DNA of 55,467 nt, filler included, from Dimargaris cristalligena (GCA_003614675.1; 2 parts of 2 records of this genome joined end to end with filler, not necessarily neighbours in it), one strand, 5' to 3'. Counted from the first letter of the whole stretch, positions 16,424 to 47,527 are shown. The notes: generated by a model from the sequence alone, not told the origin. A program made the numbers and translations.

Positions 16424-17230
16424 TGTGGGTCTCGTGTGGGATGTATTCTTTTCAAAATGACAACTTCAGTTAACTTCTTCATTATTACGGGAAAATATTA
16501 AACGCAAATGTATATTTGGAGATATTTGCTGTGCTTTCTTCGTTCCGATACAACCAGGTATTGGGGATATGGCTGTAATCCGTATTAGGAGGGGGTTGAT
16601 GGATAGTTTGGAGAAGAGTAGGTTGTTCCAGCAGATCATTTAATCAATGCTATAAATATACGCCGGTAGTTAGTGTTATGCGCAGACTGGTAGTTATCCG
16701 GTGGGTTCTAGTTCAAAATCAAGTAGCGAGGACTGCAGAGTTGAAATTAATGGCCAGTTCCCTTATACTATGAACAAACTGTCACCCACTTTGCATTAAT
16801 AGATAGCTTCCCAAATATTACAACATCGCTTTACTATATTTGACCTGTCTAAATGTCTAAGGAATAAGCGGGCCCACCTTTTGTATAAATTCAATAGCTT
16901 CATGGTCAATGGTTGGTAGCTTTGCTTCAAATGTACTGTCTACCACCCCTATGTACCTACATCATAATGTGAGGCGTTACTTGCGAACATTAATTATATA
17001 GCCCTAGGGGCGCTTGATTCTCCTGACATCATTTCCCAATCAGGGAGAAGGTTTAAGCCGCGCTTGCGTATGCAGAGAGGATTCTTCACACTCTTCCTCT
17101 GTTATTGACCGCTTCGGTGCCTCAATGTCTTCCTCTGTGCTCCCTGGAAGAAACGGCAAGGCGTGTAGAACGCATATCTGCCATTATCCATTGCTAATAC
17201 CATCAACTAATTATTCCGCCTATCTAATAG

Positions 17231-18412
<1,182 letters not shown>

Positions 18413-22413: not shown

Positions 22414-25400
22414 GGTGGTAATTTCAAGGCGAATGGTAGGAGTGTTTTTGTGTGTGTGGAGGGGAGGGGGAATGAATAACAAGGGTGGTGGTACTGGTAT
22501 TGGTATTGGTGCTGAAAAGGCGAACTTATATACGTATGAGAGTTGGGTACAAGGCTCTGCCAGTTGGCACGTCATAAAAAAATTCGCTGAGTTGGGTGGG
22601 AATAAATAATCAAACCAAGTGAGAAGGCAGCCGATAAGCCAGTTAGTCACCCGATGTACTTGTACTTGCCAAACCGTGTTGTCAGGTGATAAGGGAAAGA
22701 AGGGTATTGTATATTTTACGACCCTTTCCCCCCTTTTCAGAGCTTTTCCCAAATAAGAATAATCCGACGTAATAGCAGAAAAGAAGATGGATTAAGTAAA
22801 GGTATTAAGTAGAAGATTGCTAGTGGTGTGTTGTGGGTGGGAGGATACACTTGCAAGGTTGAGGGGGGAAATCCCGCTGGGAACGGCGCTGCCTTCCGCG
22901 TGGTCTCAATGGTAGTCGGAGAATGGTCAACAGTCCGCTATAATAACACTGGGGGATTGGCAGTAGGTAAAGGTGGCCAGGACAGACCAATTGGTCAGAA
23001 TAAAAAGCTGCAAAGACAATTGCGTATTAGTGACTACAACCTTGGCGACTATTTATATTCACTGGAAAGTACCTAAGCGGGTGGTCGTATTTAGAGATTA
23101 TGGTGTATCCTCGTCATCAGTAAATATGGATGCGCGAAAGGCTCATTCTGGCTACTAAACGAAGGGCCCGGTTGACCATTATGGCATTACTAGTTTAAAC
23201 TAGAATGCCCTCTTATATTCACATTCATAATCGATTAAAATATTCGGAAATTGATGAAATTTAAAATCAGTTGTAGCCTCACGCCATCTCGCCATCGGGG
23301 AGGGCTTTAGAGCGATCACAGCACTAATAAGCCGACGAGGAATAGTAAAATGTGAGCGGGCGATGCCAACCGAAATACCGAAAAGACCATGACGGCAGCC
23401 TCTCCACCAGTTTGGGAATGAAATAACACATGTGTTGTAAAGAACCCGGGTCACCAGAGTGTATGAGAAATGTAGGCGACCAACTTGGGACGGATCTTTG
23501 TTAATATATTATAACCTCCAGTGTGTTTCACCCACCCTTCAGTCGTCAACCCAAGACTGGGCTACTTCAATGGGCTTACCATTTAGCTATTTCATTTCTC
23601 CAGTATATGGGTTCTATCCAGATCTGCATTGTCCTCTCCAGTGATTTATTTTTCAATTACAGTTCTCGGTTTGCAGCCCAGATCTAAATGGCAAGCCATT
23701 CAACGTGGTTTGTTAAGTCGCATGCAAGATAACATAGTCAAGTCAGTTCAGTAGCGAATCACGCCAATGGTTACTATCAAAGCATTTCCCATTTTTCAGT
23801 CCAATCATATAGTCGATATTGGCACCAAAAAGCCTTTTGTGGACTATATATACAAATTGCAGCAGGTCTAATATGAAAAATCAGAATTCCAAGATAGTGG
23901 TATTTTGTTATTAGTGTTTGATAAAGAAAAATAGTAGCATAGGACTGTACACTAGTGTCAATTAGCCCCGCATATTTATGCTTAGTCTTTACGTATTCAT
24001 TATTCAAATTGATGGCACACATTATGATACAGTATTGGATTTGATTTTTTCAGACTCCAATTAAGTCCATCCTTCTCCCGCTCTTCAATTATATGACGAA
24101 ATCTAGTGGTTCTGGCTGCATTCCCACTGATCAAAATGCACTGTGTATTATGAGATACACATAGCCCATTTTCCCCGACATTAAATTACATCCCAGAGAT
24201 AGAGTCTCTTGCACCAACAAGTTAGGGCACTTAGCGGTGACTGTATATTCCCCCATTGTAGTCAGTAGCAATACGCATGAAACAATAGGGCGAAAAGTAA
24301 ACCATTATAATGGGATCCTGCTAGTCAGCAGAGGCCATCAGCGATGAAAGATATTCGTGAGTAGTCGTGTGGAAGCCTTTATATTACTTCAGCCCCAGTT
24401 AGCGATTAGGTACATGTAAAACCGCGGATGACGACAGGAATATAGTCCAGAGCTCAAGTATGAGCACATTTCTCTAAATAGTACTTACTTATTAGCCCCG
24501 AGTAAATTCGAGTCTTTATTTTAAAATAGATTTAGAAATTATCTAAACGGGTCAATAATTTAAATTTACAGAGATGAAATCAACGACGGTGAAGGCGACA
24601 GCGCCGCTTTTTCTTAAACGATAATAATATTATTGATTCTACGTGTACTGATCCGAGTGGTTATGAAAATACTATTACACATCGTCGTTCGATTGTCGGT
24701 ATATCGTATATCCTGTATCCCATTAACGACTCATCTTGCCAATAGTTACGTCGTCCCGTTCGCGACTCCTATGGTCCGCCTGTTTGGGTCCAACTCACAA
24801 ACTGCGCCCGGCACTTCTTCACCCGACGGGACCAAGCTGAATTCTCCCGGCCTCTCGGACCTTGGGGCTATATTTCTGCACATATAGTCAAAGTTAAATA
24901 TTTATCACTCGGGGCTGGTCCAGTCAGTCTCCCTCATTCGAGCGAGGGGTGTTGTGGAGGGGGGGGCGACCTCTTGTCTGTGAGGGGTGAAAGTCTCCCC
25001 CAGTTGCATTAGTACCCGTCCGTCTGAGTGCAGCACCCTTATTTCTTTCGCCGGGGGATTAAGTTCGGTTGTGCTGGGCCCTTGATTATCAATTCTTCGG
25101 TACATGGGGTATATAGGATCTTCCATGCTTCGTCTTTTGGGGCCGCCTCCTTCTGCCGCCGGAATTACCATGGAGCGACGCCACTCTAATAGTAGACTAA
25201 TGCACAATCCCATTAGGCCGCCCTATTTTTTTTTTGGCACTGTAACAATGATCCTTTGCGTATCATCACCTACAAATGATAACCATAGACTCTGAAAAAT
25301 GAACGTAAAATACTGTAGGGTAGGATATATAGACACCAGCAAAAGCGCGAATCGCGAGTATAGTCCTTGTTGAGCGTACAAGGAATGCCTCATGAAAACA

Positions 25401-27701: not shown

Positions 27702-27801
27702 NNNNNNNNNNNNNNNNNNNNNNNNNNNNNNNNNNNNNNNNNNNNTTAATTAATTAANNNNNNNNNNNNNNNNNNNNNNNNNNNNNNNNNNNNNNNNNNN
27801 N
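27702..27801. other. Artificial contig spacer (44 N + TTAATTAATTAA + 44 N)
   Basis: Symmetric N runs around a 12-mer (27746-27757) that gives stop codons in all six frames. Exactly 100 nt long. Confidence 0.97.
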
Positions 27802-31136: not shown

Positions 31137-33572
31137 TTAGCACAACTCATTAGATAGGTGATGTACATGTTGGGTGCTGAGACAGTTGGGTTTACAGTAG
31201 TCGATGGACTTGAACCAGGGGTCGTTCAAAATATCCTCCATCGTGGCCCGCTTCTTGACGTCGGGGTGCAGCATCGCTGCCAAGAGGGGCTGGCCCTCGA
31301 CAATCGGGAACGCGGTGATTGCTTTGGAAGTACGGCGGTTGTGGTTATTGGCATACGAAGAATAGTCAGCGTTGTCACGCCGGGCTACTTTCCAGGGGAA
31401 TTTGGAAAGGACCAAGGAGAATAGGACAATACCCAGCGACCAAATATCGGAGGCCCGGGGATCGTAAGGTCGCTTAACGTGAAGTTCGGGGGCGATATAG
31501 GGGTCGGACCCGGTATAACCGGTCACTTCGTGGGCCTCCGATTCGAACGGGGTCTTGAACACGATGGCACAGCCAAAATCGATGAGTTTGACAATGCCAT
31601 CGAAGTTAAGCATGCAGTTCTCCAGTTTCAAATCCCGGTGGGCGATACCCAGACTGTGCAGGTAGTTGACACCGTGAACGATCTGGACGAAACAGCAGAT
31701 GCACTCGTCAGGGGTCATTTTACCGGTGGCAACGACGTTAAATAAATCGTAAGGGCAGTACTCCATGATTTCGTAAACATGGCCCTCTTCAAAGATAATG
31801 TCCAGGGTTTCGACGATGTTCTCGTGGTGAATGGATGATCCGATGCAGTATTCGCTGGTAATCTTCTTGTAGTACTCACGCTCCGACTCCCGGGGGTCGC
31901 GGGCCCGGAATTCTTTAACCGCGTATACCTTGGGCCGGCCTCCGTTGGCGGGCTGAGTGAGACAAGGGGTGACCTGGCTCGTATCAGCGGCTCGCTGCAG
32001 AGCGTTGGTGGAGGGTTTCTTACCAAGCATTGTCACCGGGTTCTGGTTGTGGGCCGGGACACTTTGGTGGGCGTATTCCTCAAGCAGGCGCACAGTACCG
32101 CCGGTGCCTTGGCCAATAACTTTGACCGCTTTACCGTATTCCGCAAGTGAGGCTTCGTGAGCATGATAGCGTCGCCGGACGGCGCTGTGTTCGGAAGAGC
32201 CGGAAGACGAGTAGCCACCCTGGCCAGCGGCGTCGTCGTCCGCACCTTTAGCTACCGGACCGGAAGGGACGGGTCGCGGGGCGGTGGCGTTATTCGCCAC
32301 AAAGGCGCCAGGCTGAGCGGTGGGTGGGTGATGACCCGGGCTTGCTTCCACAGCGGCCTGCTGGTTGCCGGAGCGAGGTTGTTGACGGCCCTTGAGGAAC
32401 TTTTTGATGGGGACAAAGATATGGGCAATGGGACGATGGGGCTTGGGTGGTTTACTACCAGTTAGGCCAGGGACCGGCGAGGGTGACTGGGCGTGCTGGT
32501 GGTGAATGTCCTTAATCCCATGGACGGCTTTCGTCAAGGGGTTGTTTTCGACAAAATGGGAGAGCATCCGGCCAGCGGTGGGGGACGGCTGTTGTTGGCT
32601 CGAGCCGGACTTGGAGTAGCGGTGCTTGGGTGGGCCCCCAGTATGACCCCCCCGGCTACGGCGCTCTTCCGAAACAATCCGATCCACCGTGGCGGGGGAG
32701 ATGTAGTGCACATTGTTGCGCACGGCAGCCTCCTCGGTATAGCGGGATGTATCCACGGAGGGCCGCGGTGGTGGCTGCCGAACAGGTGGGGGTTCAGTCG
32801 AAATAACTTGACTAGAACTAGTGGATACGGGGGTATGGGGGTGGGAGACGCTGCGGCGACGGTCAGCTACTTCGGTGGGTGACAAGTTGGCTACGGGTAC
32901 GGGCTCCCCCATGGTAGAGGAGCGATGACGTAGGGGTGGCGAGCGTTGTCGCTGGCCGGAGGACCGAGCCGAGCCGTTAGAATCGCTAGACCGGGTCGAG
33001 CCGGCCTCACTCTGGTTGGAGCTCGACAGGCGGAAGGAGGCCTTGCGGGCGATAACAGCACCGGGGGTGGCCGTGGGGGAATGCACGGAGCCAGGAGGGA
33101 AGAGTGGGGCGGGCATGGGGTCGTCGGTCAAAGTGGACTGGCGCTTCCAGTCCAGGCCAGCAGTGGACTCAGGGGAGTGCAGGAGCAGCGCACTGGGGCT
33201 GGGTTGAAGGGTAGCGGTCGAGGATTGACGAGTGGAGGGGGTGGTTCGCCGGGGGCTGGTGGAATGGGATGGGGAGGCAGAGTCGCAATGTCTTGGGGAA
33301 GGGGGGGAAGCTGAGGGAGAAGGGGGAAGATAAGCCGGGGTGGTGAAGGAGGAAGAGGAGACGGGCGAAGGGACACTCTCACCCGAGGAGGAACCCTGGG
33401 CGTTGGAAGGTCGCTTACGTGATAGTAGAGAGCGCACTGAGAGGCCCGAGGCAGCCGTCGTCAGTTTAGCCAAGCGAGAAGACTTAGAGTTAGAAGAGCG
33501 CTGAGAAGGGGAAGGGCTAAGGCCAGTGGAGTCGGGACTGTGGGTAGACATGGTGCTGACCGGCGGGCTCAT
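31137..33572 (-). CDS. Ser/Thr protein kinase of the fungal HAL/NPR1/HRK1 family, 811 aa
   Basis: GQGTGGTV, YAVKEFR, KKITSEYCIGSSIHHENIVETLD, HRDLKLEN, DFG and GSDPYIAPE. Long S/P-rich N-terminus. In-frame TAA two codons upstream of the ATG. Confidence 0.93.
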   Translation of the reverse strand: MSPPVSTMSTHSPDSTGLSPSPSQRSSNSKSSRLAKLTTAASGLSVRSLLSRKRPSNAQGSSSGESVPSPVSSSSFTTPAYLPPSPSASPPSPRHCDSASPSHSTSPRRTTPSTRQSSTATLQPSPSALLLHSPESTAGLDWKRQSTLTDDPMPAPLFPPGSVHSPTATPGAVIARKASFRLSSSNQSEAGSTRSSDSNGSARSSGQRQRSPPLRHRSSTMGEPVPVANLSPTEVADRRRSVSHPHTPVSTSSSQVISTEPPPVRQPPPRPSVDTSRYTEEAAVRNNVHYISPATVDRIVSEERRSRGGHTGGPPKHRYSKSGSSQQQPSPTAGRMLSHFVENNPLTKAVHGIKDIHHQHAQSPSPVPGLTGSKPPKPHRPIAHIFVPIKKFLKGRQQPRSGNQQAAVEASPGHHPPTAQPGAFVANNATAPRPVPSGPVAKGADDDAAGQGGYSSSGSSEHSAVRRRYHAHEASLAEYGKAVKVIGQGTGGTVRLLEEYAHQSVPAHNQNPVTMLGKKPSTNALQRAADTSQVTPCLTQPANGGRPKVYAVKEFRARDPRESEREYYKKITSEYCIGSSIHHENIVETLDIIFEEGHVYEIMEYCPYDLFNVVATGKMTPDECICCFVQIVHGVNYLHSLGIAHRDLKLENCMLNFDGIVKLIDFGCAIVFKTPFESEAHEVTGYTGSDPYIAPELHVKRPYDPRASDIWSLGIVLFSLVLSKFPWKVARRDNADYSSYANNHNRRTSKAITAFPIVEGQPLLAAMLHPDVKKRATMEDILNDPWFKSIDYCKPNCLSTQHVHHLSNELC

Positions 33573-34715
33573 GGCTTATATAGGGGGAGAAGGGGGATGA
33601 TGGGAATTATAAGCGAAAATAAATATGGGGGTGGGTGGGTGATGGGGAGTTTTACAATACAGTGGAGGGGGGAGGGAAAGTGCCCAAGAGAAAGTTGGAG
33701 GGCAGAAGAATATACACAGTTGAGGTGCACGCAAAAAGGGGGCACCGGGAAGAGGCGGGAAGAAGGTCAGAATGGAAAAGAGGGACGGGGTTGACGTATG
33801 TCACGCACCCTATTAATCACGCAAGGAAATAATAGAAATGGGGTGTGGTGGAGATTGGATTATCCACGAGAGAATACGCCAGACCAGCCTAAAATAGAGC
33901 CGAGGAAGACGAAAAAGAGAAGGGAGAGAGAGGCTCAAACGGATTGATGAATGCAGTAGTGACCAGAATATATAAATAAGAGACTGTTCTTATCACGGCT
34001 TCAAACACAATGCGTGAGGGCGTCTATCTAGAAACAGCTGCTAAAATATTGCCTGGGAAGGGATTATTCAAACAAAATCAATTACGACAAGAGTAGCGCT
34101 AACGGTGAAAGGGGGTTTCTGAGCGGCTAAAGAAAGCGAGAAAGGCACCGAGTGATTACAAAAAAAATAGGCGGAAACAGGTATGGTGAATAAGGAGGAG
34201 GAGCCACGGTGGAAACCCAGAAACTTAGACGAAGGATATCAATTTAGCTAAGCCTCAAATGGGGAAATGTAGGGAAGCACACTAAGGGTGGTGGAAAATG
34301 TGAGGATGCACCTGATTTGAGGAGCACTTGAAAGAGGGACGCTGCAGAGTGGGCGATAAGCCAAATGCAGATGAACGCCCCCCGTGAAGCGCCAACAGCT
34401 AAAACAATCGGGGAAAAGGGGGCCGTGCAGATGACGGCGGTAATGGCGGGCCGGGATTCCGGTTTAAAGTGGTTATCGTCGCTGGGACTGGGTTGACGTA
34501 TACCCAGAGCCTTAATGGAAACCAGGGGGATACTATGGAGGACTATAGCAATGGATGGTAGTGGGGTATGGGCCAAGTCGACTCAGTCAAGATTGGAGAA
34601 CCGGAGGGGTAAGATTCAGTCAGTTTGGTTAAGCAGAGTAACTATAAAAAAAAATAACAGAGAGGAATAAGTCCAGAAATAATCAACTGGCTGGACTCGG
34701 AGGCGTGTGTTACAC
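33573..34715 (-). other. Putative common 5'-UTR exon of the kinase (AUG-free, ~1.14 kb)
   Basis: No minus-strand ATG from 33573 to 34790. Bounded by an ACTAAC branch point (34740-34735), a pyrimidine tract and TTTAG ending at 34716. Confidence 0.6.
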
Positions 34716-35699
34716 CTAAAGGAACGGGGAAAGGGTTAGTAGGAGTGGGGGGACAGTCTCTTTAGCCGAAAAAATAATAAGTGCAGGTGCCATACGTACT
34801 AACGCAGCACACCACCATAAAGGGACAGACTAGGTAGATAAGTAATAACAATGAGGAGAGGGGTTGGGCGTTTTTAGGGTATTTAGGGAGTAGCGCTTAA
34901 TGTTAGGGCCTGAGAGGAAAGCGAGGTTAGCTGGGATGAAGAAAGGGGGGCAGTGGATGCGATGTGGTATATATAAACAACAAAAGAAGGCGGAGGAGAG
35001 AGAGAGGGAAGAGGAACACTTTGATGATAGTGGTGATAAGTACAACAAAGGGGAAATAATGGAGCCGGACGAAACACTAATGGCGGGAAGAGGAGAAGGC
35101 TGGGCGGAGGGAAAGCGGGATGGCCTAGGGCTGGGTGCTTGGTTCAGTCAACCAATGAAAACACTTGACTGGGGAAGGACCACGCAAGGGGGATCAGGCT
35201 GATGAGGATAGATAGGAGGCACAATAAGGGGAGGATGATGGACCGACCACTGGTAGACTGGTAAATGAATACGGCACAAATCGCTCCGAGTGGCTATAAT
35301 TAATATACGGCAGAGTCCCATTATTATTATCAACCCAGGCAATTTTTGGACCCAAGAGTGGGAGAAAACGAGGGGCAAAAGTGTGTGAGGAGGTAGGTAG
35401 ATGGATGAAGGGCGGTTAGTGGTGGAAATGGGGGAGGATGGGCACAGCACGTAATAAATAATACTGCTATTGTGTGTGTTTTGGGCGGGTAGGGAAATAA
35501 ACCAGGCCCGCCCACGCCTTTTTCCCTGTCTTGCGCAATATCCCCTCCCTTATTCACTAGTGTGGCACTAATATGGCCCGCCCATTTACAGTTGGTCCGA
35601 CTACCCCATCCATCAGTGTGGACAAGCCGGCCGTATTGACGAAATAGGCAATGTAATTAATTAACCTTAAAGAATAGAGAGAAAGATATATGGACTTAC

Positions 35700-36003
35700 C
35701 TGTAACGGCTATTCGCTAATTTAGGTTCTGTAGTAACGAGAAGGATGACTAAGTTCAGTGCTTTTAACCAGGTGTGAGGGGTGCGCAGATACACTAATGG
35801 AGGAATGGGAGGTTTACATTCAATACGGTGGGTGGTTGTTAGCAGGAAGAACAACACAGGAGCAACCGGGAAAAAGGTAGAAAAGGAAGGAGTGGCAGTG
35901 AATAGCCGCGACAGTAGGAATAATCAAACTGGGTAGTAGTGGCTAAAGGACTAGAGAGAAAGAGCTAGGCTAGCTGGGGGGGATGGGCCTCTCCTTATAT
36001 ATA
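35700..36003 (-). promoter_or_regulatory. Putative proximal promoter (TATATATAAG 36003-35994) and non-coding first exon ending at CAG|GTAAGT
   Basis: TATA-like element, CT-rich leader and a consensus donor at 35699. The only AUG in the exon is a start-stop ATGTAA at 35819-35814. Confidence 0.5.
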
Positions 36004-36975
36004 CATGCATATAAAGGTCGCGTGGCAGTGTATGCATATATGCCTGAAAAAAAATAGGCCGGAGTTTGAGCCACCCGGAGGGCAATGCAGTCAGAGAAGA
36101 GACCTCTCTCTCTATACGCGATGATGAGCTGATAGGCGCGTGTTGGCTGAAGATGGCCCAGCAGCCCTTTAATCAGTTGAAAAGGTGTCTTAAGGTAGGG
36201 GAAATCCGGCGAAGGGACCGTAGGTTAAGCCCTCGATAACTAACGAAGGGCCATCGCAGGGTGCCACAGTGCGTAACTAGGGATTATTTCAGCACCAGCC
36301 AACGCCCGCCAGTGCTCCCTAGGTGCTACTACCAGGCCGCGACGATGGTTGCACCCATTCAACAGTCCCAAGTACAGGCCATGCTAATAATCAACCCCCC
36401 CTTCGTCACTGCCACACGCAAGAAGGCCAGTAGAATGGGTCCTTCGAATAGGACAGTATAGACCACAGAGACTACCTACCACCCCTCAGATTAATAGTGG
36501 AGTGGCCAGTCACAGCCGATAAGGGGAGGGGGATTACTACTAGCAGCAGCAACAGCAGTAGACACTGGGGGAGGGGTTTTTCTAAACAGAAGCTAACGTG
36601 CAGAAAAGAAGAGCCTCTCTCCCCTTGTCCTTCGCTATCCCAGCCGTCAAAACGCATCTCGGACCTTCCCCTGTGCAGAATTGCACTTTGGACCCCCCAA
36701 AGGATTCCGGCCCCTCCCTTGGGTTTCTAGTTCAAAACCCGTCCGGGGAAGCGCCAGCAATCAGCATTGATGACATTCAGGGGAGACGGATCAAGTAATA
36801 GGGATGAATAGTAACAGTAGTTGACCATATCGCCTACGCTTTCCACTCTCCCCTCCTCTACACGGATCACCGGTGCGGTGCTACTAACCGCCCCATCACA
36901 CTGTATTTGGCCAATCCCCCAGCTACCAAAACTCCTCACCCAACGCCAAAATATCCGATAAATAAAAGGACTTAC

Positions 36976-37902
36976 CGAGTGTAAAATGTAAAGTAATATT
37001 CGAAAATAGGCAGTAGTGGTTGGACCGGGCTGTTTCGAAAGATGGTGGTGACTCTCGGATATAGATAGGGTGGTGTTCCAGTAGGTGGACAAACCGCCGA
37101 ACTTAGAGGCTACGAAGGAATTAGTTCTCGGTAAGTGGGTGGTGGGATTCTTCTACTCTACGTTGGTAAGGTTGTGGTGGGCCTCCGGAGAAGATCCAAT
37201 GGTAGCTTACACAGATCAAGCACGAGTGAAATAATAGGTGAAGAAAGGGCCACGTTTCCACGTGAGTGTGGGGTTCGACAGGCTACTACTAGTAAGTGAT
37301 TCAAAGGCTGCTTAGGCTAAAAATAAACGGGTGTGCAGACTATTTCTTAAAGAACTAAAAAAGCAACAATGAAACGGGCGCTGAGAATAGTAAATTTTCG
37401 GATGTGGGTATGACTAGGTCACCTACGTAGCCCTCGTTAATCGTATACGGCGGAGTTCCCAGTATTAAGATGAAAAAGAAGCAGTAGACGACTGTCGGAG
37501 GAACTGTGTAAGTGAATGGAACCCGGGGCTAAGGGGTACTTAGGGGACCGGCAATCCGAAACGAAGGACTGATCCGGTAGATAATATATATATATAAAAC
37601 TGATTACGGCGCAGTATTAAGGGGATAGCGGAAAATAGGGGCTACCAGGTGGAACAGAAATGCTAAAAACACAATATTATCCCGGTAAGTGTAGACGAAC
37701 AGAGAACCTGAACTTCACGAACAATATCTCGAACACAAATGAAGGATTTAAACCGAAATGACAATGACAATGATAACGATTTTTGGTAATAGTAGTAATA
37801 CTAAGATGCGGGCAGTCAGAGCAATTACGATGTAATTATACAATTAAGTTGGAGTATAGGAGTTGGTTTTAAATCCAGAGAACACCCACCCACCTTTATA
37901 TA
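36976..37902 (-). promoter_or_regulatory. Putative distal promoter (TATATAAAG 37902-37894) and ~0.9-kb AUG-free first exon ending at G|GTAAGT
   Basis: No minus-strand ATG from 36897 to 37981. Donor at 36975, with ATGs reappearing shortly inside the putative intron (36896, 36828). Confidence 0.5.
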
Positions 37903-38730
37903 CAAACTGGGTAACGTGTTGGATATCCTGCCTCAGGCACGGTGGCCGCAGTTTTAAAACCCTGCCCGTTTTTCCCTGCACCATTATCACACTTTCCCTG
38001 AGCATCCTGTTTAGCTTATTCCCTTTAGATTTTCGGGGTTATTACTGTGGCATGTTTTTTTTACAAACAGCTCGTTGTCGTCATTGTTTAGGATGTTTCA
38101 TGGCCACAGTGGGCAGATTCATCCACCACCAGTTGACCTTAATATTAGTTCATATTTCCTGGATTAACCGTTATATGTAGGCCCCTCCCGATAATAACGC
38201 TGGGATGGGTGGTGTGGATGCAAGCACCGCTAGTTGGAGGGGCGGAAAGATAGGCGGGTATTTTGAACTCAGCATACTCTTGCCCGGTTGGTAATTAATT
38301 CACTGGATTTCCACGTAGCGTTGGCCACTTAACCGCCACCTCTGCTTCTGTCGAAGAAAAAGAAGGAAGGGTTTACTGGTGAGAAGTTAACCGATCCACC
38401 TAGGCATTATCACTTGAACAGCAATAACCTCATACACTTATTCCACCGCAGTAGTTGGTCGAGTGTCCCCTCAATATATGGCAGACCCTCACGCACGTCC
38501 TACCACTTCCTACTGTTCCCAATTGTAGTCGCTAGTTAGAGAGATAGATAGAGTGAGAGAAGGGCAGGTGAAATCCGCCAACGAGAGACCTCCACGCACC
38601 ACTAGAGGAACCCTCACATTCAATGGTATTCAAATATGTTTATTATTTAGACATGGGTATTATATCCCTTTAGGAAGCGACGGGAAGGCACCATGGGCAT
38701 GTGACCTATGCTGTGGAACCGGCCTCTTCT

Positions 38731-38845
38731 ATTGAGGACTGTGGCCCTCTCCATTGGAACCGTTAAAACAACCACGGTGGCGGTTACTGTCGCACCAACT
38801 GTGATTGGCCTACAAACGATTGTAATGGAGAGGCCTTTATTCAAT
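38731..38845. repeat. Intergenic imperfect inverted repeat / long hairpin
   Basis: GGCCcTCTCCATT 38743-38755 pairs with AATGGAGAGGCC 38824-38835, with an outer ATTGA/TCAAT pair and an inner CAACCACGGT/ACTGTGATTG pair. Confidence 0.5.
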
Positions 38846-41800
38846 CTCAGTTTTCATTCCCCTGTGCCAGTCTTTTACTCTGCCCTCGCCTCTTCTACAG
38901 TAAAACCAATTGAATTAATTTCCCAATAGAGGCCGTTTTGGTGTATTGTTTAAACTAACCATCCTCACCTGATTTGGAGGTCTAATCCCTGAACCTTCAT
39001 TGACGTACTCTGGAATGCCGTTTACCAATAATCCATACTCTCTCCTCGAGCGAGTCCGCCAATTATTATAGGGCAAGATTCGTCACAGAGACTTGGCTTG
39101 GCCTGTCTCCTCTTTTACTCCGGCTTGCCGCTCAGCTGAGACACTTAGGAATTCACATCGATGCCGAAAAAGATACAGGGAAATGGGCGATCCGTGCCAA
39201 CTATGCTACGAGCCAGGTCTGGCATAGGAGAGGGGTATTGCGAAGGGACACGCGTGATCGGGAACCTTTATTCGGGCAATTGGACTGACTTTCCGTTGGG
39301 TCGGGTTGATATTTCGGCCTTGGTGCTTTCTGGACTATCTATTGTCCCTAGGTAGGATATATGCCTGGGAATCGGACCGGCCAGAGATTTCGCTGCTGTT
39401 TTTAGCGGCCATCTGCCCGTCCACCATGAGAATGTATTCCTGCGCCCATTATACAACTGGTTGTCAATGCGCGGTGGGAAGCAACGCACGGCTGGTTGGT
39501 TAGTGCAAAAACTTCATCACCGACTCCTCCGTAGGATGCGAAATTGGCCATTTCTTTTTCGGCCACCAAAAATATAATCCCAATCTCATTGATACCGGGG
39601 TAGGCTGGCATTGTTGGATGGTCTGGTTAACATGATTTTCCGAGTAAGCGGGATCAGCCAACACTGTCCACTGTGAGTGATTTAATACCGGGTTGGAGAC
39701 GCAGGGTGAAGCCACTCCTAGTTTGGGCAGGATAATTTTCCGCAGAACACATCTATGGAACATTGGCCTTTTTTGATACTTTTTTTCTTGAATAATAAAT
39801 AATAAAATACGGAGGACTGGAGAGTCGAGGAGCACTGGTCATTACAGAGATGGACGTCGGGTTTATTGGTGGGCGGCGGGGTCTTTCGGAGGTCCTCTAA
39901 AGTCCGAGATACACGAGAGGATAGTAATGGCACCATTGGTAAGCCACGCGCGTGTGTATATTCTGGTGGAGAGTACCAGAGGCTCATAAAACCACCTTTA
40001 ACGATACGAGGTGATAGTCGAGTTCTATTCTGCCCAGAGCAAGTAAAGCGGGCCGATGATGGCTATTCCCACCGGATCCACTTAAAACAACAGCAGCCCT
40101 TACTAAAACGGTGACCACTCACCGGTCGCCATGGGATAACGTGCCTCCCTTCTTTGGCCTAAATCACCCGTTAAGCTAAAAGGATTGCGATGATGGGGCA
40201 CATCAATAGGTGGAAAAGAGACCTATCCATATTCCTCTGGGGCCACCTGATTGGTACAGTCGGGCCTATCCCAAACTTATCTACGTTGCTTACTTCATCT
40301 GCCTGTTTTGGGTGGTCGTCCCTAATATTACTTCTGGGTTTTCTGGGTGCCTACTGGTAAAGGAAAGGGCGGGAATGCGGGTTACATAACGGAGCCTCAA
40401 TCCAAACAAGAAAATGCCAGCTTAATAAGCCCTGCCCAATAGAGCGAGCACTTCAACCGGTTCCTCTTCCTATACAGGCGCCACCCTTTCGCTCTCTCAT
40501 CCTCATATTTTCAACGGACCAAAGGGCCAATGATAGTGGGGGGGGGCAGGATTCATTATTATCTAAGCATCGCGGACATCTATTGGACCAGCATTATTAT
40601 CCTATACGGGACGCATGTCCCTTTATTACCTCCGAGTTTCAGCCGCCTACTTCCCTCCGTTAAGAAGTCGCGGTACAGAGGGCAGATGTCCATCCGGCCC
40701 GATTTACTATGTGTTTGTCCATATACCACAACCAAGCCCGCCGGGTCTAGCCGGATCAGGCCTAAAGCCACCATGCGGTGTTTCTGGCCCACCCAAGCCC
40801 AGGGAAACCCCGAGGCCCCAAACCACCTGCGAATTCAAGGCATAGAATATGCTGTCTGAGGTGGTGTTGCCGTGTGCCCTAATATTTGGCCGTTCTGGAA
40901 CGCCCGGGGGGGGGGGTTTAAAAAAATAAAATCTATACTAAACCAAAGGACCAATATCCGTATAAAGTAGTGTATTGCTTTACGAGTTCTCGCCAACCTC
41001 TCACTGTGTAAGCCAAATGTTGATTCTACTAACCCCACAACCCCCATTTGGGCAATGGCCTCATCTAAATAAGTCACATGCACCTCACTGGTTTGCCGTT
41101 TGGGCTACCTCATCAAAACAATACCCACATTATCTACTCTTACAGATTTGGGTATCCCCCCCATATGATCTTTCGAAAATATTCCACCATTAAACAGGGC
41201 AACAGGGTAGCACAGTGTGTGCCGAAATGGCAATACTAACGCATGGCCAGGTCCGTTGACTTTACTATCCATATCATCTGATCAGTGATGTCTACACACT
41301 GTTTTGGTCTACCTACGATTCCCAAGATTCATAGCCAACCGTCCCTTTCGACTTGGGCCAAAGCGATTTTCTCCGAATATATGGCTGGTATTGATTAGCA
41401 ATGTCAGTCGCTAATGAGGTCCATGCACTTGCCTTTTTTTTTCAATGGTCTTCCATCAAAACAGCGTAAAAAACTGATCAATGCCCAGTAGCTGCTTTGT
41501 GATTGTTGGTAGCCGTCATTACCCTACTGTCATTGAGTACACATACCGCTATGCTGCAATCGCCAAGGCTGCACTATGCGTACCCAGGCGGAAATGGCGT
41601 ATAAGGAATATTAGGCAACCTCCTTTAGTGGCCTCAGTATAACATCCTTGTTAAACTATTAGGCGGTAGGTGCAACATACGTCATTGAGTGGGTGTAATG
41701 GCTGCTGAATTTCGAATAGTCAGCGCCAGCGCCTTACCTACCCGGTGCCACCCTCGAAGGTTGGGGCTATTGGCTGTATCATAGTGGTTGTAAATTGAGC

Positions 41801-42125
41801 TTCACCGATACAGAGCGATAAAGTATAGCGAATAAAACGGCGGCAAAATTCCGAGAGCACGAATCCAAATGACTCAATACGATACGTGGCGATTTTTTTA
41901 TATCTTCTTTTTAAACCACATCACACGTATAGGTTGATGGGGAGAGTATCTGATGAAACAACCAGTGGGGTTCATGTAGAGTGAAGGAGAAGTAAAAAGT
42001 TAATGGCATTAAGTGCAGGACCAGTAGAGGTAAAGGGTGTTTCATGGTACCGGCGCCGCAAGGATCTTCCTACTTTTACCGAGCCAATGGTTCGGCCCAT
42101 GGAAGACGTAATTTCGACGGTGTTT

Positions 42126-43787
42126 TTATTTCGCGGACACGGCTTTTTCAGCTTCATTGTAGGCACCAATCAACTTAGCCAGAGATTCCCCAATGATACT
42201 GGGCTATTGGGAAATATAGGACTGTGTGGTACAATCGTCTCATCGTCATTGTTTTCCTTTTGCAGTGAGGACTCGGTTGCAGTGGCCAGGCTAAACATAC
42301 TAATTTAATCAAATAGACGCCCTTGAGATCGTAGTGGTCTATAATCGCTTTAGCTTTATAAAACGTGTCGTTTTCGTTGAATTTAAGGCCTGTGATGAAG
42401 CATCTTTAGAGGGCGGTGAAACACGTGGACTGTGCGTTGAAGGCGTGTGGCCCATTCGGTACATTGGTTGTCAGATGTTTGGGAAATTTCACTGGCATGA
42501 GGTTCCCAATGGGCTCGTGGTTGTGCCACTTGGGAATTTAAATAACAATTCCCACTAATGTGAGCTATATTTGAAGACCGAACCACCTGTTAGAGTGAGC
42601 CTGATATTATTCCATACTCATGAACATAGCGACCAGTCGGAATCCGTATACTTACTGGTTGAATTCTACTGATATGTTACAGGTAAATAGGACATGCCAC
42701 ATGGTCCAACATTTCCAACAATGAAACCAAAATAGCAGCACATACCTATGCTAGTTCAAGATGCGAAATTCCGTTTCTTACTGCCTACCCCAGCTGGATC
42801 ACAGGGACCGAATATTCTTGCATAGATTTCATCATAATGGAAGAAGAACCCGGTAATTACTGCCACCCGCCCATCTCGTCGATTGTAGCCCCCTACCTGG
42901 CGCTACTATACTGGAGGTTGGTAAACCAAGGTGGATGATAGTCAGTGCTCAGTTGAAGCCCATGTCTACGGTCAAAGTTGTGGCGTTTAATGTGGAACGC
43001 CAACATAAAAAAACAGCTGCTAATGTATATACGTATCGATGGGTCAGTTGTATTTGTATATTTCAATTCCAACTCCAGTTGTCCCGAATTTGATTGCTGG
43101 GAATACATTTGCGGCTCATATACCAAGGCATCACTATGATGCTTCCAACTACACTTCACAGTGACTCATGCGATTTTAAATGTTTAGCCAAAGTTACACA
43201 GATATATACCTCCAAGGGAGTTATCGGACCCAATTTGGCAACATCGGTATTTTTTTGTAGGCACATGATCCCACGAACCAGCGGAACTACGGATAAGATT
43301 TCCGTTGACTTTACTCTTTCCGGGGAGAACATAGCGATTAAATCCGGATTCTTTGAGTATATTTCTGTCCACCTGTACTTGGTAATTCGGCTCTTTAGGT
43401 CCGCGGAACTCCTCTTGCGGCCACGGGCGAGTCGGAGTCGGTTAATCCTTCTCAGTATCTGAAACATCGATAAAATAGAAACACTACTTAAATTCAATCA
43501 CCGAACAGGTGGTTTGGATCATTTTGGGAATGGAGGCAGGAGGGGTGTAATGTGGAGTGGGCTAGCATGTAGTGCATTAGGAGTACCCAATGGGTTTTAA
43601 CTGGTGGGTCTACTTCTGACAGCACGTAATTTAGTGGGCAGCTTACCTCCCTAATGCAGTCTGGACGTGGATAAAGTTTGACGTTAGTTAATCGATTTAA
43701 GAATAGCCGCAGGAGAGACCGAATTTGGAAAATTTCCACGCAAGGGCGGTTGGAAGAAACCTTAAACGGTTCCTCTGATAACCGCAT
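42126..43787 (-). pseudogene. Possible cryptic or decaying multi-exon gene
   Basis: Two phase-compatible exon chains: 43787-43647/43458-43210/43096-43033 and 42586-42463/42389-42301/42203-42126. I could not join them without stops near 42905. No firm homology. Confidence 0.25.
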
Positions 43788-46700
43788 TCTTCTATCCTGG
43801 CTCTAAGATGATTCTGGTAAGTTCGGCGAAGTCCTGGAGAAAAAGTGGAAAATGACTCAGCGCGTCGATTACTTAATGGTATTTTGGTGTTTGATGGCAT
43901 GTTTCTAACAACCTTTTGTTTAATTGATAGTTTTTGGCAGATTTCGCCTTTTGCCAAGAAAATTTGACAAACAGGTATTATTGAATACAACTGACCTAAC
44001 CACTACTACTCTATAATTTTGTAACTTGCTCTAATAATATGATATTGTCGGATATTCATTGCTAGGCTATATAGCAGGATCTTAGTAGTCAGGTTGCAAT
44101 ACTTATACAGGGCTTATTACTATCGGCATTATCGCTGATAGGGAAACCTCTTCCGTTTACGGTCGTTAAGTCATGGGGGTATAAGATGTAATGATTGTTA
44201 TCCGGGAACCACATTAGGCCAGGGATAATAGGGTGACAGTCACCCTTCTTTTGAGGCTGATCCCTTCGCTCCTCTCCTTTTGGATATATACCTCTCAGGT
44301 GCTCTCCAGTAGGATGCCTACCCTCCACCAATAGCACTCTGATCCCTGACCTTAGAGGTTGTAAATTTGAGAAGCCTCTAACGGCATAACCTATTAGCAC
44401 CGCTATAATTTAGGGTACTTATTTACTTAAATGGGGAGGCGGGGGGTACGTCTAAATTAACAGCAACTCCACCCCACCCTCTTTTACCTTCGCCAACCCC
44501 ACTGTCGTTAATAACCCCGAAATCCAGCTGAGCTTGTCGCGCAGACTGCCTATATCCCTCCTGGTCTAATCAAGTGTGGGGTGGGTAAGCGGACGGGGCT
44601 TATCATTGTAGTATAGACTTGCTCCCGCCTCTTTGTTGAACCACAACTTCAAGTCAATGTTTTGGTAAATGTTTAGGCGGTTCCACACACACACATGGAG
44701 ATTCCGTCATTAGCATAATACACGTAATGCTAATTGGGTGAGCGAGTAACCCCACCACCAACCATCCTTGTTTCTCCTTCCCCCTCACCCAGTCACAGAA
44801 GACCACCCTCGTCTGGAATAAGTTTGAGCCGTCGCCATGAGACCCCGAGGTCAAACCAAAGGAAGTGTATGTTGAAAGTATGAGGGAAAAAGTATACTTG
44901 TTTCCGTTTCCCCCTGAGTGGCGGAGCCTGTGAAGGTCATGGCTGTTCTACCATATACGCCAATTATTAGTTTCAAGGTATATCCCCCCGTCTCACTATT
45001 GATCGTTTGATCACTTTCTAAGTCCATTAAAGTCGACTGGAGTACTACTAATATCCATCGCTAAAAAAATGGAATTATAGAAATATGGTTTAATGTAAAA
45101 GGCAACGTGATTACGGGTGCCAAGAAATGGGTGCTGCAACTTAAAGCAGCCCCCTTCTATTTGTCGCTAAAGCCGCGTCGGTCGCTTAATCCGTTTAGCC
45201 GATCACATGGATATTCGAATGGGGTTCGAATAGGGAGAGATGGGGGTTTCTTGCAATATGTATCGTATAACAGGGTTAACCGTCCCGTCCCGTGCCCTCC
45301 CTTCCCCACCTCACATTTCCCCCAACTATTTTTTTTTAGGTCCGTAATTGATGTAGCCATCCTCGCGCGTGAAGATCGTGATAACCCACATGTTATCGTT
45401 CATAAGCAAATATTTCAGTTCACACTTTGGAATTATATTACCTTAAAGATTGAGCTGATTACAACCCCCTCACCTCTTACGGACCTAAGTTCCACGCCTC
45501 AATTGTTGTCGGAACCTGGCTGGTCAAATGTCTACTTACTTGTATTTCACTTTACTTGCCAGCACCCTCCGACTGCGTTGTGCTATTGATGGGGGGTGAT
45601 GTGAAGGGGGAATGGATAAATACTATGCATATTACACGCCTTTAGCCTCCATCCCAAATACATTTCTGTTGATATACAATAGTTGATATATCAAGCTGTT
45701 AAACGTTTTCCCAGCCATTGCAAAGTGATGACCGGACCTTGGCTTGACAAATAGGGTAATTATTTATATGGCGTATAGGTTCATTCATGTTAGCCATGCA
45801 TATTTGACCCAACAACGATAGCAAATCCGCAATTGGTATTTCGTCGGGCTGGTGAAGGGAACATTAGGAGAGGAGTAGGCATTATATTCGATTCTTGATC
45901 GGCGATGTAAAGCAGTACGTCTGAAAGATTAGGGTTCTCATTTGTGGTGATCGTGGCCACCTGGTGTCCAGGTGTTTGCAGCCCATTGTTAGTGATACAA
46001 TTCCGGGGTAGGAGGGGCAGGGGGTATAGTAATGGTGATACTTCTCCACCCTCCCCTATATCCCTCCCTTCCCTAGCTCACCATCCCATTACCTAAAATG
46101 AATTTCAGAGTGAAACCAGTCGGCATTAATGGCTCAAGAAGTAGAAAGGTATGGTAGTCATCCATCACGTTGACTTTGGCCCCTGATAACCCCCCAAAGC
46201 TTTATTTTGAGCTACGCGTACTTTCCCTATACGAGCCCATACAGTCGACGCGGTCTTGAGTAAATGAGGTTTTTTGGGTATCTAAACATCGAATACCTAT
46301 TATATCCAATGGTGAACTCGCTAATCTATTATCCACATCCATTTCATCCGAATAGATTAGGCGTCGGCATTCCGGTCCTTAAAGAATCTTTCTTAAATGG
46401 GTCCAGCCTCTCAACCTCAAACCACTGTACGAGGTATAAGCCCCTGTGGATACACGATAAAACATAGTGTTGATGTATATTGGCATTTACTACGTTTTAA
46501 GCCTGCAGGTGGTTTTTTGGGGGGCTTTATAGATCGGTTGAACTTGCCGATACGTTTGACGACCTAAATCAGCCGTCCGTATCAACCTGAAGGGCCCCTG
46601 ACATACTAATTATTATCCAAAGGGAAATACGCATGGTTTAGGTAGATGTGGGGGACAGCCGTACCACACTACTACTATGCCTGTTGGCCATTGTTCTCTC

Positions 46701-47527
46701 CCAACATGCCTATACCTCAGACGTGGTAATTTTCCCATTCATATCGTATCACAGCTATGTTGTTTTGGCTACATCTTCTCCCGTGTCTAAGTGGCAGGTG
46801 ATAGGTGATAGGTTGAAGAGGAGGAAGTGGGCGGAGATGTGGGCTGGGGGTCCACTAAGCCATTCGTCCACTCAATTGGGAAGTCGATAGCGCCGGTTTT
46901 GGATATCGCCAATGAACGTGTACAAATTATACCCCTAACCCCGCCCTTTTTTCACGTTGATGAGAGAGATAAACCAATCGAGACCCGTACGATGGGGCGG
47001 GTAGTACATTCCCGAATTAAATATTGTCATTAGGATTGCCGTTGCCAACGAATTTAGTGTGCTGTGATGGCGGTTTACCCTAGCTATAGCCAACGTCGGT
47101 CAATTATATCTATTAGATTAGGAGGAGAGGCATCTCTTGTAGCTCACAAAGCACATTGTCCCTTCCTTCCATCTCGCCCGAACGAGGAGTCTCTACGCAA
47201 TTCCCAAGCCGTGTCTGCTCTACGTCAGCGTGATAGACGAAAAAAGCAGGTTGGCAAAAAGAACGCCAAGGAGGAGGAGGATAGTGGCTGTCATCCACGT
47301 ATGTAACCAGCCCTACAGCCCGCCCTCCCTGTGTATATATATTGGGTTTCACTTCGGACTTGTCGTTTTTGTTTTTTGTTCCAACATTTATCCCTATTTT
47401 TCGGGTTATTATTCGTCTAAGTGACCAGCATCCGTTGCTTTTCCAGACTTTGCCTTGCTCTCCCCCCCCCCTCCTATCGCCATTTCCCGTGTACCCAAAC
47501 GTACCCCCGTTCTACACTAAACACACC

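Follow-up and report, generated by a model that had tools for sequence, protein, structure and literature searches.

Gene content of the kinase locus

The region studied here lies upstream of an intronless protein kinase gene on the minus strand of the window, by which we mean the whole stretch of DNA analysed (55,467 nt). The Pfam Pkinase domain covers residues 547-787 of the 811-residue product (E 7e-47), and the long N-terminal region ahead of it is of low complexity and rich in S, P and T. Its nearest homologues are Dimargaritales kinases, and the proteins from that order include P0001 of Tieghemiomyces parasiticus, P0081 of Dispira parvispora and P0082. Matches to the kinase region at 41-51% identity carry the source names 'HAL protein kinase' (Podila, Mucor) or 'Serine/threonine-protein kinase oca2' (Smittium, Choanephora), names that are source annotations and not tests. 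The protein shows the C-terminal Ser/Thr kinase domain architecture of the NPR/HAL (Oca2) family, and its closest named relatives are members of that family. A first-pass annotation of this DNA had called it a HAL/HRK1-family kinase; the family assignment agrees with these features, but the HRK1 label finds no support beyond family level.

We regard the ATG at 33572 as the right start codon because the Dispira orthologue, with whose Met1 the kinase N-terminus aligns (protein P0081), begins at the aligned Met, and because an in-frame TAA (33578-33576) lies two codons upstream. The features that we recognize at and upstream of the gene are collected in Table 1.

Table 1. Observed and proposed features of the kinase locus, ordered from the coding region to the distal promoter candidate
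Feature	Coordinates	Strand	Description and basis
Kinase CDS	31137..33572	minus	811 aa + stop, intronless, NPR/HAL (Oca2-like) family; ORF
Proposed leader exon 2	33573..34715	minus	1143 nt; starts after first AG
3' splice site	34716..34741	minus	TACTAAC 34741-34735, pyrimidine tract, first AG 34717-34716
ATGs nearest the acceptor (34818, 34793) and GTACGT 34799	34791..34820	minus	sequence, ATG list, splice-site scan
Proposed 5'UTR intron	34716..36975	minus	2260 nt; donor, branch point and acceptor signals
Candidate alternative unit 1b	35699..36003	minus	TATATATAAGG (36003), G-poor tract, CAG/GTAAGT donor (35699)
Donor G/GTAAGT closing proposed exon 1a	36970..36975	minus	motif scan; first ATG 79 nt on, 36896
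Proposed leader exon 1a	36976..37880	minus	~900 nt; 5' end placed from the TATA box
Candidate distal promoter, TATATAAAG (TATA)	37894..37902	minus	motif scan

Selective absence of ATG from two upstream tracts

The kinase strand contains no ATG over two long tracts, 33573-34792 (1220 nt) and 36897-37981/3. Beyond the kinase start, the ATGs of this strand are found at 34793, 34818, 35321, 35585, 35609, 35613, 35819, 36006, 36010, 36037, 36254, 36358, 36382, 36657, 36767, 36776, 36828 and 36896, and then at 37984. The first-pass annotation had reported both tracts, ending the first at 34790, together with many ATGs on the opposite strand. Our recount bears this out and extends the first tract to 34792; the opposite strand carries 76 ATGs in 33573-38000, with 24 and 15 inside the two tracts. 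The corresponding ATG gaps (1221 and 1088 nt) are the two largest on either strand of the whole window, the third being 542 nt.

A dinucleotide-preserving shuffle test, which had been suggested as a check, gave about 11 expected ATGs per tract and reached zero in 0 of 2000 shuffles of each (mean 11.7 and minimum 3 for 33573-34792; mean 11.0 and minimum 2 for 36897-37981). First-order Markov expectations are 11.8 and 11.1, with zero-count probabilities (P0) of ~8e-6 and ~1.5e-5, and ATG alone among the trinucleotides is absent from each tract. The depletion affects a single strand and a single trinucleotide, and these results support the conclusion that composition does not explain it. Because the loss is confined to one strand, it points to selection on RNA rather than on DNA.

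Significance at the scale of the window was assessed by shuffling 500-nt blocks and scoring both strands in 400 trials. The largest gap reached at least 1088 nt in 4 of the 400, and a single run is therefore only about a 1-in-100 event at this scale. A second gap of at least 1088 nt occurred in 0/400 trials, the biggest second gap being 728 nt. Chance does not account for two such runs on the same strand, of which one abuts a start codon. A third run, 34819-35318, had been raised as a caveat; it is indeed free of ATG, but the observation is weak, given that zero was reached in 12 of 2000 shuffles.

Signals bounding the tracts and the putative intron

The distal ATG-free run and the purine/pyrimidine strand skew both end at TATATAAAG. 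This sense-strand pyrimidine skew extends from ~30.8 kb, past the kinase stop, to ~37.85 kb and is about zero above ~37850. The distal tract had been described as running from a TATA box (37902) to a G/GTAAGT donor (36975), and both signals were found as placed. The proposed exon 1a that they delimit contains no ATG where 7.6 are expected (0/1000 shuffles), has a G content of 0.155 and is predicted to fold weakly (MFE -13 per 100 nt). It also carries four copies of CACTTAC, one of them at 37137-37131, against 0.16 expected (0/3000 shuffles).

At the proximal tract, the previously described boundary by a branch point and acceptor (34740-34716) was recovered, with TACTAAC beginning at 34741 and the putative exon beginning at 34715. 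This TACTAAC is the sole minus-strand copy in the 55-kb window, and with its AG it scores best among eight candidate branch/acceptor sites (pyrimidine fraction 0.84). Proposed exon 2 has 0 ATGs versus 11.5 expected (0/1000 shuffles), a G content of 0.15 and 67% pyrimidine, and its mean predicted folding energy is -15 kcal per 100 nt versus -24 in the CDS. Across the leader blocks the predicted values are -10 to -15 kcal/mol per 100 nt, and across the flanks, the 5' part of the proposed intron and the CDS they are -20 to -27 kcal/mol per 100 nt.

A consensus donor, branch point and acceptor, as looked for in a 5'UTR intron, occur in the correct order on the kinase strand, and all 18 upstream ATGs fall within the proposed 36975-34716 intron, the outermost at distances of 79 nt from the donor and 77 nt from the acceptor. 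The count of 18, set against 28.9 expected (10/1000 shuffles), amounts to a mild depletion. The interval is also heterogeneous: 35991-36975 is G-rich and structured, and the 3' third (34716-35450) is G-poor and weakly folding, with 3 ATGs versus 7.4 expected (27/1000 shuffles). Since 34716-35450 resembles the proposed exons, either the signature is not specific to exons or further start sites exist. TATATAA, GTAAGT and TACTAAC each lie within ~100 nt of the three block limits; the joint chance of this is near 5e-6, a rough, post hoc estimate made from motif densities that assumes independence.

Other pairings of signals are possible. GTACGT at 34799 could define an 84-nt intron with the same TACTAAC branch point and AG, and further possible acceptors lie at 34909 and 35168. 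At 2260 nt, the proposed intron is more than five times as long as the window's one homology-supported intron (426 nt, donor CAG/GTAAGT), which belongs to the adenylosuccinate synthetase gene; leader introns are often the longest. The UFD1 gene is predicted from its signals to contain an intron with GTAAGT, TACTAAC and the first AG in the same succession, and the comparison supports the view that the splice signals proposed for the kinase leader match the organism's own. Counting against a two-exon leader are the length of the intron, its exon-like 3' third, the rival acceptors and the 4/400 frequency of a single run.

Searches for other genes and RNAs

ATG-free tracts are a recurrent feature of this window. 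Three of its five longest ATG-free runs abut start codons (those of the kinase, ORF600 and UFD1), and the remaining two lie upstream of the kinase on the same strand. Eight of 14 other ORFs with an ATG are preceded by an ATG-free run of 200-541 nt directly before the first ATG, with G contents of 0.10-0.17. Such G-poor tracts before the starts of other genes make it reasonable to read the kinase tracts as leader sequence.

Among the 47 ORFs of at least 70 aa in 33.4-47.5 kb, none matched Pfam, and no ORF of at least 60 aa in this interval scored above +1.9 bits against the window's own codon usage; Pfam-positive ORFs outside the training set score 20.7-31. A hidden gene in the interval was rejected on these two grounds, and a plus-strand gene using four GTAAGTG motifs as donors was rejected because coding potential is lacking there. 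The results support the conclusion that no other gene could own the distal ATG-free block.

Known structured RNAs were also sought. No RNA family reached its gathering score anywhere in the window, and the one sub-threshold match in 33400-38300 was rejected as a chance hit, its 19.7 bits (E = 0.22) falling short of the gathering score of 45; a tRNA search found none. A duplication relating the two blocks was likewise rejected, the comparison yielding only three short matches (20-23 nt, two copies each) and not a single inverted repeat. Only one of 43 200-nt windows had a folding z-score below -2.5 (-2.72, in the proposed intron), which is not significant as conserved-looking RNA structure after multiple testing. 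Metagenomic relatives of the kinase were present at 10 loci (26-43% identity), and in the nine examined the stretch without ATG ahead of the first in-frame ATG measures 17-212 nt; L007 (26% identity, 1.4 kb) was left out of this comparison. These relatives say little either way because they are too distant (at most 43% identity) and their gene models are unverified.

A proposed long leader and its alternatives

We propose, with moderate confidence, that the 4.3 kb upstream of the gene represent the ~2 kb AUG-free leader of a single kinase mRNA, carried on two non-coding exons separated by a 2.26 kb intron. A minimal version, in which the proximal 1.1-1.2 kb is the kinase 5'UTR, is probable from the sequence features described above. 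Transcription would most likely begin a little way past the TATA box at 37902, and the 2260-nt intron (donor 36975, TACTAAC 34741, acceptor 34716) would be removed from the 5'UTR. The resulting mature leader of ~2.0 kb would combine exon 1a (~0.9 kb) with exon 2 (1.14 kb). If the exon limits are as proposed, no AUG occurs over at least 1 kb before the main start, which is what characterizes a long leader of this kind. Such a leader would be devoid of AUG, G-poor and pyrimidine-rich, with little predicted secondary structure. A 40S subunit scanning from the cap could reach the AUG at 33572 uncaptured by upstream starts because the leader is AUG-free and has little predicted structure. The observed pattern would follow from purifying selection that removes upstream AUGs from the exons and acts only weakly on those of the intron.

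The most serious competitor, possible but rather doubtful, is that several promoters feed one leader exon, with both 1a and a further first exon, 1b (TATA 36003, donor 35699), spliced to 34715; a third start may lie near 35.3-35.45 kb. The isoforms would then differ in their load of upstream AUGs, with none in 1a, one AUG-UAA in 1b and two in an unspliced form that starts upstream of 34818. After TATATATAAGG at 36003 there is indeed a weakly folding tract, poor in G (0.14), with the organism's consensus CAG/GTAAGT at its end, each of the three G-poor blocks follows a block of ordinary composition, and the mild ATG depletion of the intron (18 versus 28.9) is expected if it is partly exonic in some isoforms. 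However, exon 1b contains an ATG at 35819 with a TAA directly after it (35819-35814); its single ATG, against 1.7 expected in 272 nt, is uninformative as a count because the exon is so short, and an acceptor closer to its donor is possible at 35601, which would give a 99-nt intron. The first-pass annotation had taken the second TATA and donor to define a shorter unit and had let two promoters splice onto one AUG-free leader. Both signals of the unit exist, but the unit is not free of ATG, and although the distal signals and the depletion fit that model, the second promoter and exon are weaker than it required, given the ATG at 35819 and the acceptor at 35601.

We consider it unlikely that the proximal block alone is an unspliced kinase leader, starting at 34.7-34.8 kb or closer, and that the distal block is an independent non-coding transcript or promoter. 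The blocks do lie 2.1 kb apart, an intron of 2.26 kb is unusually long here, and TATA-like elements occur nearer the gene on the minus strand (e.g. near 34975 and 33980). Yet an unscanned non-coding RNA has no known reason to lose all of the 7.6-11 ATGs expected, the distal block has a consensus donor at its end, no other coding gene lies downstream on the kinase strand, and the proximal block opens at the unique TACTAAC/AG acceptor, a signal superfluous for a simple transcription start. There is a very small chance that the distal block is instead the leader of an unannotated small-peptide gene starting at 36896 (9 codons) or 36828 (33 codons). The former ATG would be the first met on unspliced RNA and has G at both -3 and +4, but these ORFs are tiny, the frame 36730-37152 has a codon-usage score of -22.3 and no Pfam match, and there is a consensus donor 79 nt before ATG 36896. 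The least credible account, which we regard as largely refuted, makes the tracts a functionless chance by-product of G-poor, pyrimidine-rich composition. The strand is G-poor (0.15-0.18) and one gap of at least 1088 nt can arise in block-shuffled windows, but neither the zero per block nor a second such gap was ever reproduced, ATG is the sole missing trinucleotide, and splice and TATA signals fall at the limits of the blocks.

The two-exon leader might also be extended to a splicing-gated translational switch, although we think this quite improbable. Because the exons are purged of AUGs and the 2.26 kb intron keeps 18, the spliced mRNA would be fully translatable, whereas intron retention or an internal promoter would yield an mRNA blocked by uORFs. 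Exon 1a contains four CACUUAC copies that are complementary to the 5' splice site and may resemble the 5' end of U1 snRNA; for the copy closest to the donor, pairing with that donor is predicted. By masking the donor, this pairing could place splicing, and with it synthesis of the kinase, under the control of nutrient or stress signals.

Relationship to known fungal leaders

The kind of feature described here is already known from yeast regulator genes, and the kinase leader opens no new kind of mechanism. In the cited passages on Candida albicans, leaders are given as 1662/2071 nt for CZF1, 1139 nt for EFG1 and 3041 nt for UME6 (PMC4552353, PMC6034079), and the sources disagree on WOR1 (1997/1978 nt in PMC4552353 versus 2,978 nt in PMC6034079). 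The same passages describe the ~2 kb WOR1 leader as having no AUG uORFs (PMC4552353) and the EFG1 leader of strain SC5314 as lacking an AUG uORF that is present in another strain (PMC4552353, PMC6034079). The kinase locus would resemble these genes in having a kilobase leader on a regulatory gene, typical C. albicans leaders being <100 nt according to the same material. The C. albicans leaders have been mapped with RNA-seq and are shown to alter translation, whereas the kinase leader is proposed here from the sequence. They also belong to transcription factors of an ascomycete yeast, with no leader intron described in the passages cited; the gene considered here encodes a kinase, comes from a Dimargaritales-like zygomycete and has a proposed leader intron of 2.26 kb.

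Typical leaders given in PMC7049704 are far shorter: the Cryptococcus median is 105 nt, the S. cerevisiae mean is 84 nt, and medians or means overall span 84-177 nt. The first-pass description of the kinase leader as 'very long for a fungus' is justified against such medians (105 nt; mean 84 nt) but overstates its novelty, since C. albicans leaders of 1.1-3 kb are known from the passages cited above. PMC7049704 calls S. cerevisiae leaders 'unusually AUG-poor' and states that upstream AUGs in Cryptococcus lower translation and trigger NMD, with 43% of leaders still carrying them. The kinase leader would follow the same principle of general fungal uAUG depletion on a different scale, remaining AUG-free over ~2 kb. 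Introns in leaders are also described: the same source counts 887 C. neoformans genes that have them, notes that they exceed CDS introns in length, and gives a mean of 118 nt for Cryptococcus (PMC7049704). The proposed kinase intron is like these in being confined to the leader and having canonical signals, but unlike them in its 2260 nt and 18 ATGs.

Distal promoters far upstream also produce the 5'-extended mRNAs of budding yeast known as long undecoded transcript isoforms (LUTIs), as outlined in PMC7049704. LUTIs are repressive because their extension carries upstream AUGs, whereas the extension of the kinase mRNA would be purged of them. Exon 1a, being without ATG, does not provide the uAUG- or uORF-bearing extension that marks a LUTI, and only 1b or intron-retaining forms would carry upstream AUGs and look like a LUTI.

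If confirmed, the kinase leader would rank among the longest AUG-free leaders on record for fungi. The lineage it comes from is barely studied, its closest proteins being those of Dimargaritales mycoparasites. Kilobase tracks for scanning that are free of start codons would, on that condition, not be peculiar to Candida transcription factors but would also occur on a kinase of nutrient and ion signalling. For the annotation of this genome, a working rule emerges: a sense-strand tract that is poor in G and free of ATG marks a 5' leader, and an orphan tract of this kind may mark a non-coding first exon.

The kinase gene and its start codon

The kinase gene is an ORF of 811 codons without an intron, whose C-terminal portion (residues 547-787) matches the Pfam Pkinase model (E = 7e-47). 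Its closest homologues derive from Tieghemiomyces, Dispira and Dimargaris xerosporica (Dimargaritales) and share 65-70% identity across the kinase region, and farther homologues at 41-51% identity carry the source names ‘HAL protein kinase’ or ‘oca2’. Judged by these similarities, assignment to the NPR/HAL kinases is reasonable at the family level. A review (PMC9596735) describes this family as fungal-specific and as regulating nutrient transporters and ion homeostasis. Two observations back the start codon at 33572: Met1 of the Dispira protein aligns with it, and an in-frame TAA resides two codons 5ʹ of it. An occurrence of TATATAAG at 33582-33575 (minus strand) is probably incidental, since it lies only ~10 nt upstream of the start codon and is thus too close to serve as a promoter for this ORF.

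ATG-free runs upstream of the kinase gene

Upstream of 33572, minus-strand ATGs are confined to 34793-36896 (n = 18) and resume from 37984, leaving the two ATG-free runs reported by the first-pass annotation. At 1220 nt (proximal) and ~1087 nt (distal), these exceed every other ATG-free run on either strand of the 55 kb window, of which the next in length measures 542 nt. ATG is the sole trinucleotide of the 64 that is absent from each run, and the opposite strand carries 24 (proximal) and 15 (distal) ATGs in the same stretches. Despite the G-poor character of the minus strand across both runs (G 0.15-0.18), composition is ruled out as the cause by dinucleotide-preserving shuffles, the check that the same annotation had proposed: zero ATGs were reached in 0 of 2000 shuffles for either run (means of 11.7 and 11.0, minima of 3 and 2 for the proximal and distal run, respectively). 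Under a stricter null, in which the whole window was shuffled by 500-nt blocks and both strands were scored, a gap of at least 1088 nt arose in 4 of 400 trials and two such gaps in none, with a largest second gap of 728 nt. A single run is an event of ~1% at window scale; the pair is not due to chance. A third run at 34819-35318 is weak, as 12 of 2000 shuffles reach zero ATGs.

The kinase gene is separated by 13.7 kb (33573-47527), the largest non-coding gap of the window, from the next recognisable gene, a divergently oriented MAPEG-family gene on the plus strand (first ATG at 47528, Pfam E = 7e-19). Within this gap, strand skew and ATG depletion are limited to the kinase-proximal 4.3 kb. None of the 47 ORFs of at least 70 aa between the two genes matches Pfam, and when a codon-usage model was built from nine of the window's genes, no ORF of at least 60 aa in the interval exceeded +1.9 bits, against 20.7-31 bits for Pfam-positive ORFs left out of training. 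At the gathering score, Rfam gave no match over the whole window, with one sub-threshold chance match in the kinase-upstream region. A tRNA search found none, a repeat search found none joining the proximal and distal blocks, and an excess of RNA structure is not convincing (z < -2.5 in 1 of 43 windows). The region upstream of the kinase gene is therefore both unique and non-coding.

This region is best read as a leader, because the depletion is specific to strand and to ATG, as selection against upstream AUGs would produce. Selection of this kind on scanned leaders is well documented in fungi (PMC7049704). Pyrimidine skew on the sense strand forms one domain that begins at ~30.8 kb, past the stop codon, and extends to ~37.85 kb, where it stops at the 37902 TATA box; its sole interruptions are at 35.45-35.75 kb and at 36.2-36.95 kb. 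A long AUG-free leader, as claimed in the first-pass annotation, is thus likely.

Coordinates and properties of the kinase locus and of tracts before other gene starts
Feature	Position	Strand	Properties
Kinase ORF	31137-33572	-	
Proximal ATG-free run	33573-34792	-	
Distal ATG-free run	36897-37981	-	
Exon 1a (proposed distal leader exon)	36976-37880	-	G 0.155; predicted folding -13 kcal/mol per 100 nt
CACTTAC copies in exon 1a	37691-37685, 37514-37508, 37298-37292, 37137-37131	-	four copies
Proposed leader intron	34716-36975	-	
985 nt after donor 36975	35991-36975	-	G 0.28; predicted folding -27 kcal/mol per 100 nt
Exon 2 (proposed leader exon)	33573-34715	-	G 0.152; predicted folding -15 kcal/mol per 100 nt
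ATG-free, G-poor tract before gene start	2809-3092	+	G 0.14-0.17 across set
ATG-free, G-poor tract before gene start	6641-7116	+	G 0.14-0.17 across set
ATG-free, G-poor tract before gene start	17128-17422	+	G 0.14-0.17 across set
ATG-free, G-poor tract before gene start	22576-23114	-	G 0.14-0.17 across set
ATG-free, G-poor tract before gene start	15022-15271	-	G 0.14-0.17 across set

A candidate spliced leader and its alternatives

The TATA, donor, branch-point and acceptor signals listed in the first-pass annotation were all located at their given positions, and those of the proposed two-exon leader fall close to the limits of the runs. TATATAAAG (37902) lies 82 nt downstream of the start of the distal run, which stops 79 nt past the donor G|GTAAGT (36975), and the proximal run starts 52 nt upstream of TACTAAC (34741). 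The latter is the sole minus-strand copy in 55 kb, is followed by an 84% pyrimidine tract and then the first AG at 34717-34716, and, with that AG, outranks the other seven candidate branch/acceptor sites. Composition and predicted folding shift at the donor, all 18 upstream ATGs fall between donor 36975 and acceptor 34716, and splicing of exon 2 to either exon 1a or exon 1b (a candidate alternative first exon) would create no ATG at the junction. Motif densities put the chance of finding all three signals no more than 100 nt from the block limits at roughly 5e-6, a post hoc estimate that assumes independence.

Judged from motifs, the splice consensus at the kinase leader is the organism's own. 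The window's homology-supported intron, in the adenylosuccinate synthetase gene (minus strand), runs 426 nt from CAG|GTAAGT at 10847 to AG 10423-10422, and an intron predicted in UFD1 has the signals GTAAGT...TACTAAC...first AG. The organism does not adhere strictly to the branch-point consensus, because the adenylosuccinate synthetase acceptor lacks a clear CTAAC-type site. That intron (10422-10847) directly follows a 42-codon first exon encoding the P-loop.

Against the two-exon splice stands the length of the proposed intron, 2260 nt; the window's single supported intron measures 426 nt, and leader introns of Cryptococcus average 118 nt (PMC7049704). Its 3ʹ third (34716-35450) is exon-like (G 0.136; predicted folding of -11 kcal per 100 nt; 3 ATGs versus 7.4 expected, 27 of 1000 shuffles), and the whole intron is mildly ATG-depleted (18 versus 28.9 expected, 10 of 1000 shuffles), which suggests further starts or isoforms. 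An 84-nt intron from GTACGT at 34799 could share the branch point and AG of 34741/34716, and would keep ATG 34818 in the leader. On balance, the two-exon splice is plausible, with the prospects for and against it about even. The shorter unit at 36003-35699 (minus strand), proposed in the first-pass annotation as a second promoter and first exon, fares less well. In this exon 1b unit, a good TATA box and a G-poor tract accompany a consensus CAG|GTAAGT, but the unit is not AUG-free: ATG 35819 is immediately followed by TAA to form a minimal start-stop uORF (35819-35814). Moreover, its ATG count is uninformative (1 versus 1.7 expected) and its donor has a possible nearer acceptor at 35601, and use of exon 1b as a second first exon is accordingly doubtful.

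Possible function of the proposed leader

A leader of ~2 kb with no AUG and little structure would allow cap-bound 40S subunits to scan through to the kinase AUG, escaping capture by uORFs and stable hairpins. With 18 AUGs in the proposed intron and none in the exons, translatability of the kinase mRNA could depend on whether the intron is spliced out or retained, or on which promoter is used. Exon 1a also carries four copies of CACTTAC, the reverse complement of the donor consensus GTAAGTG; shuffles average 0.16 copies and none of 3000 yielded four, for a motif noticed post hoc. For exon 1a plus a further 50 nt, the predicted ensemble pairs donor 36975 with the nearest copy (summed pair probability of 4.6 over 6 bases, donor bases 1-12% unpaired). 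This putative pairing is a lead only, as it derives from thermodynamic prediction and a motif picked after the fact.

Comparison with other leaders

Fungal leaders tend to be short: the median is 105 nt in C. neoformans, and those of S. cerevisiae average 84 nt (PMC7049704). However, kilobase leaders like that proposed for the kinase locus are already established for Candida albicans regulators. The WOR1 leader is given as 1997/1978 nt (PMC4552353) or 2,978 nt (PMC6034079), and others are 1662/2071 nt (CZF1), 1139 nt (EFG1) and 3041 nt (UME6). These papers further state that the WOR1 leader has no AUG-initiated uORF (PMC4552353) and that the EFG1 uORF is missing in strain SC5314 (PMC6034079). 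With leaders of this kind already known in C. albicans, the novelty of the proposed kinase leader is modest. The locus is unusual in its leader length, proposed 2.26 kb leader intron, host lineage and gene class; by a single text search, in which the term ‘UTR’ did not occur in the NPR/HAL kinase review (PMC9596735), no such leader is on record for the family.

Tracts that are ATG-free, G-poor and rich in pyrimidines generally precede start codons in this genome, which adds to the case for a leader at the kinase locus. Of the 14 other ORFs bearing an ATG, eight have an ATG-free run of 200-541 nt (G 0.10-0.17) before the first ATG, and such tracts at other genes extend 250-540 nt directly 5ʹ of start codons. 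Three of the five longest ATG-free runs of the window adjoin coding-strand start codons (kinase, ORF600 and UFD1); the remaining two are orphan runs upstream of the kinase gene. A G-poor, ATG-free tract before a start codon may thus serve as an annotation rule for this genome.

At ORF204 (2776, plus strand) and ORF600 (23057, minus strand), a TATA element sits close to the upstream end of the tract. Upstream of UFD1 (start at 7117, plus strand), ATG 6638 is followed 21 nt on by GTAAGT at 6659 and by a CTAAT...TAG acceptor at 6985, so that 6638-6985 might hold a leader intron or a short first coding exon; counted by hand, the frame of this ATG does not connect to the main ORF. Two N runs of 44 nt each (27702-27745 and 27758-27801), just 5ʹ of an ORF starting at 27948, are an assembly gap or masked stretch, and coincide with the filler that joins the two records.
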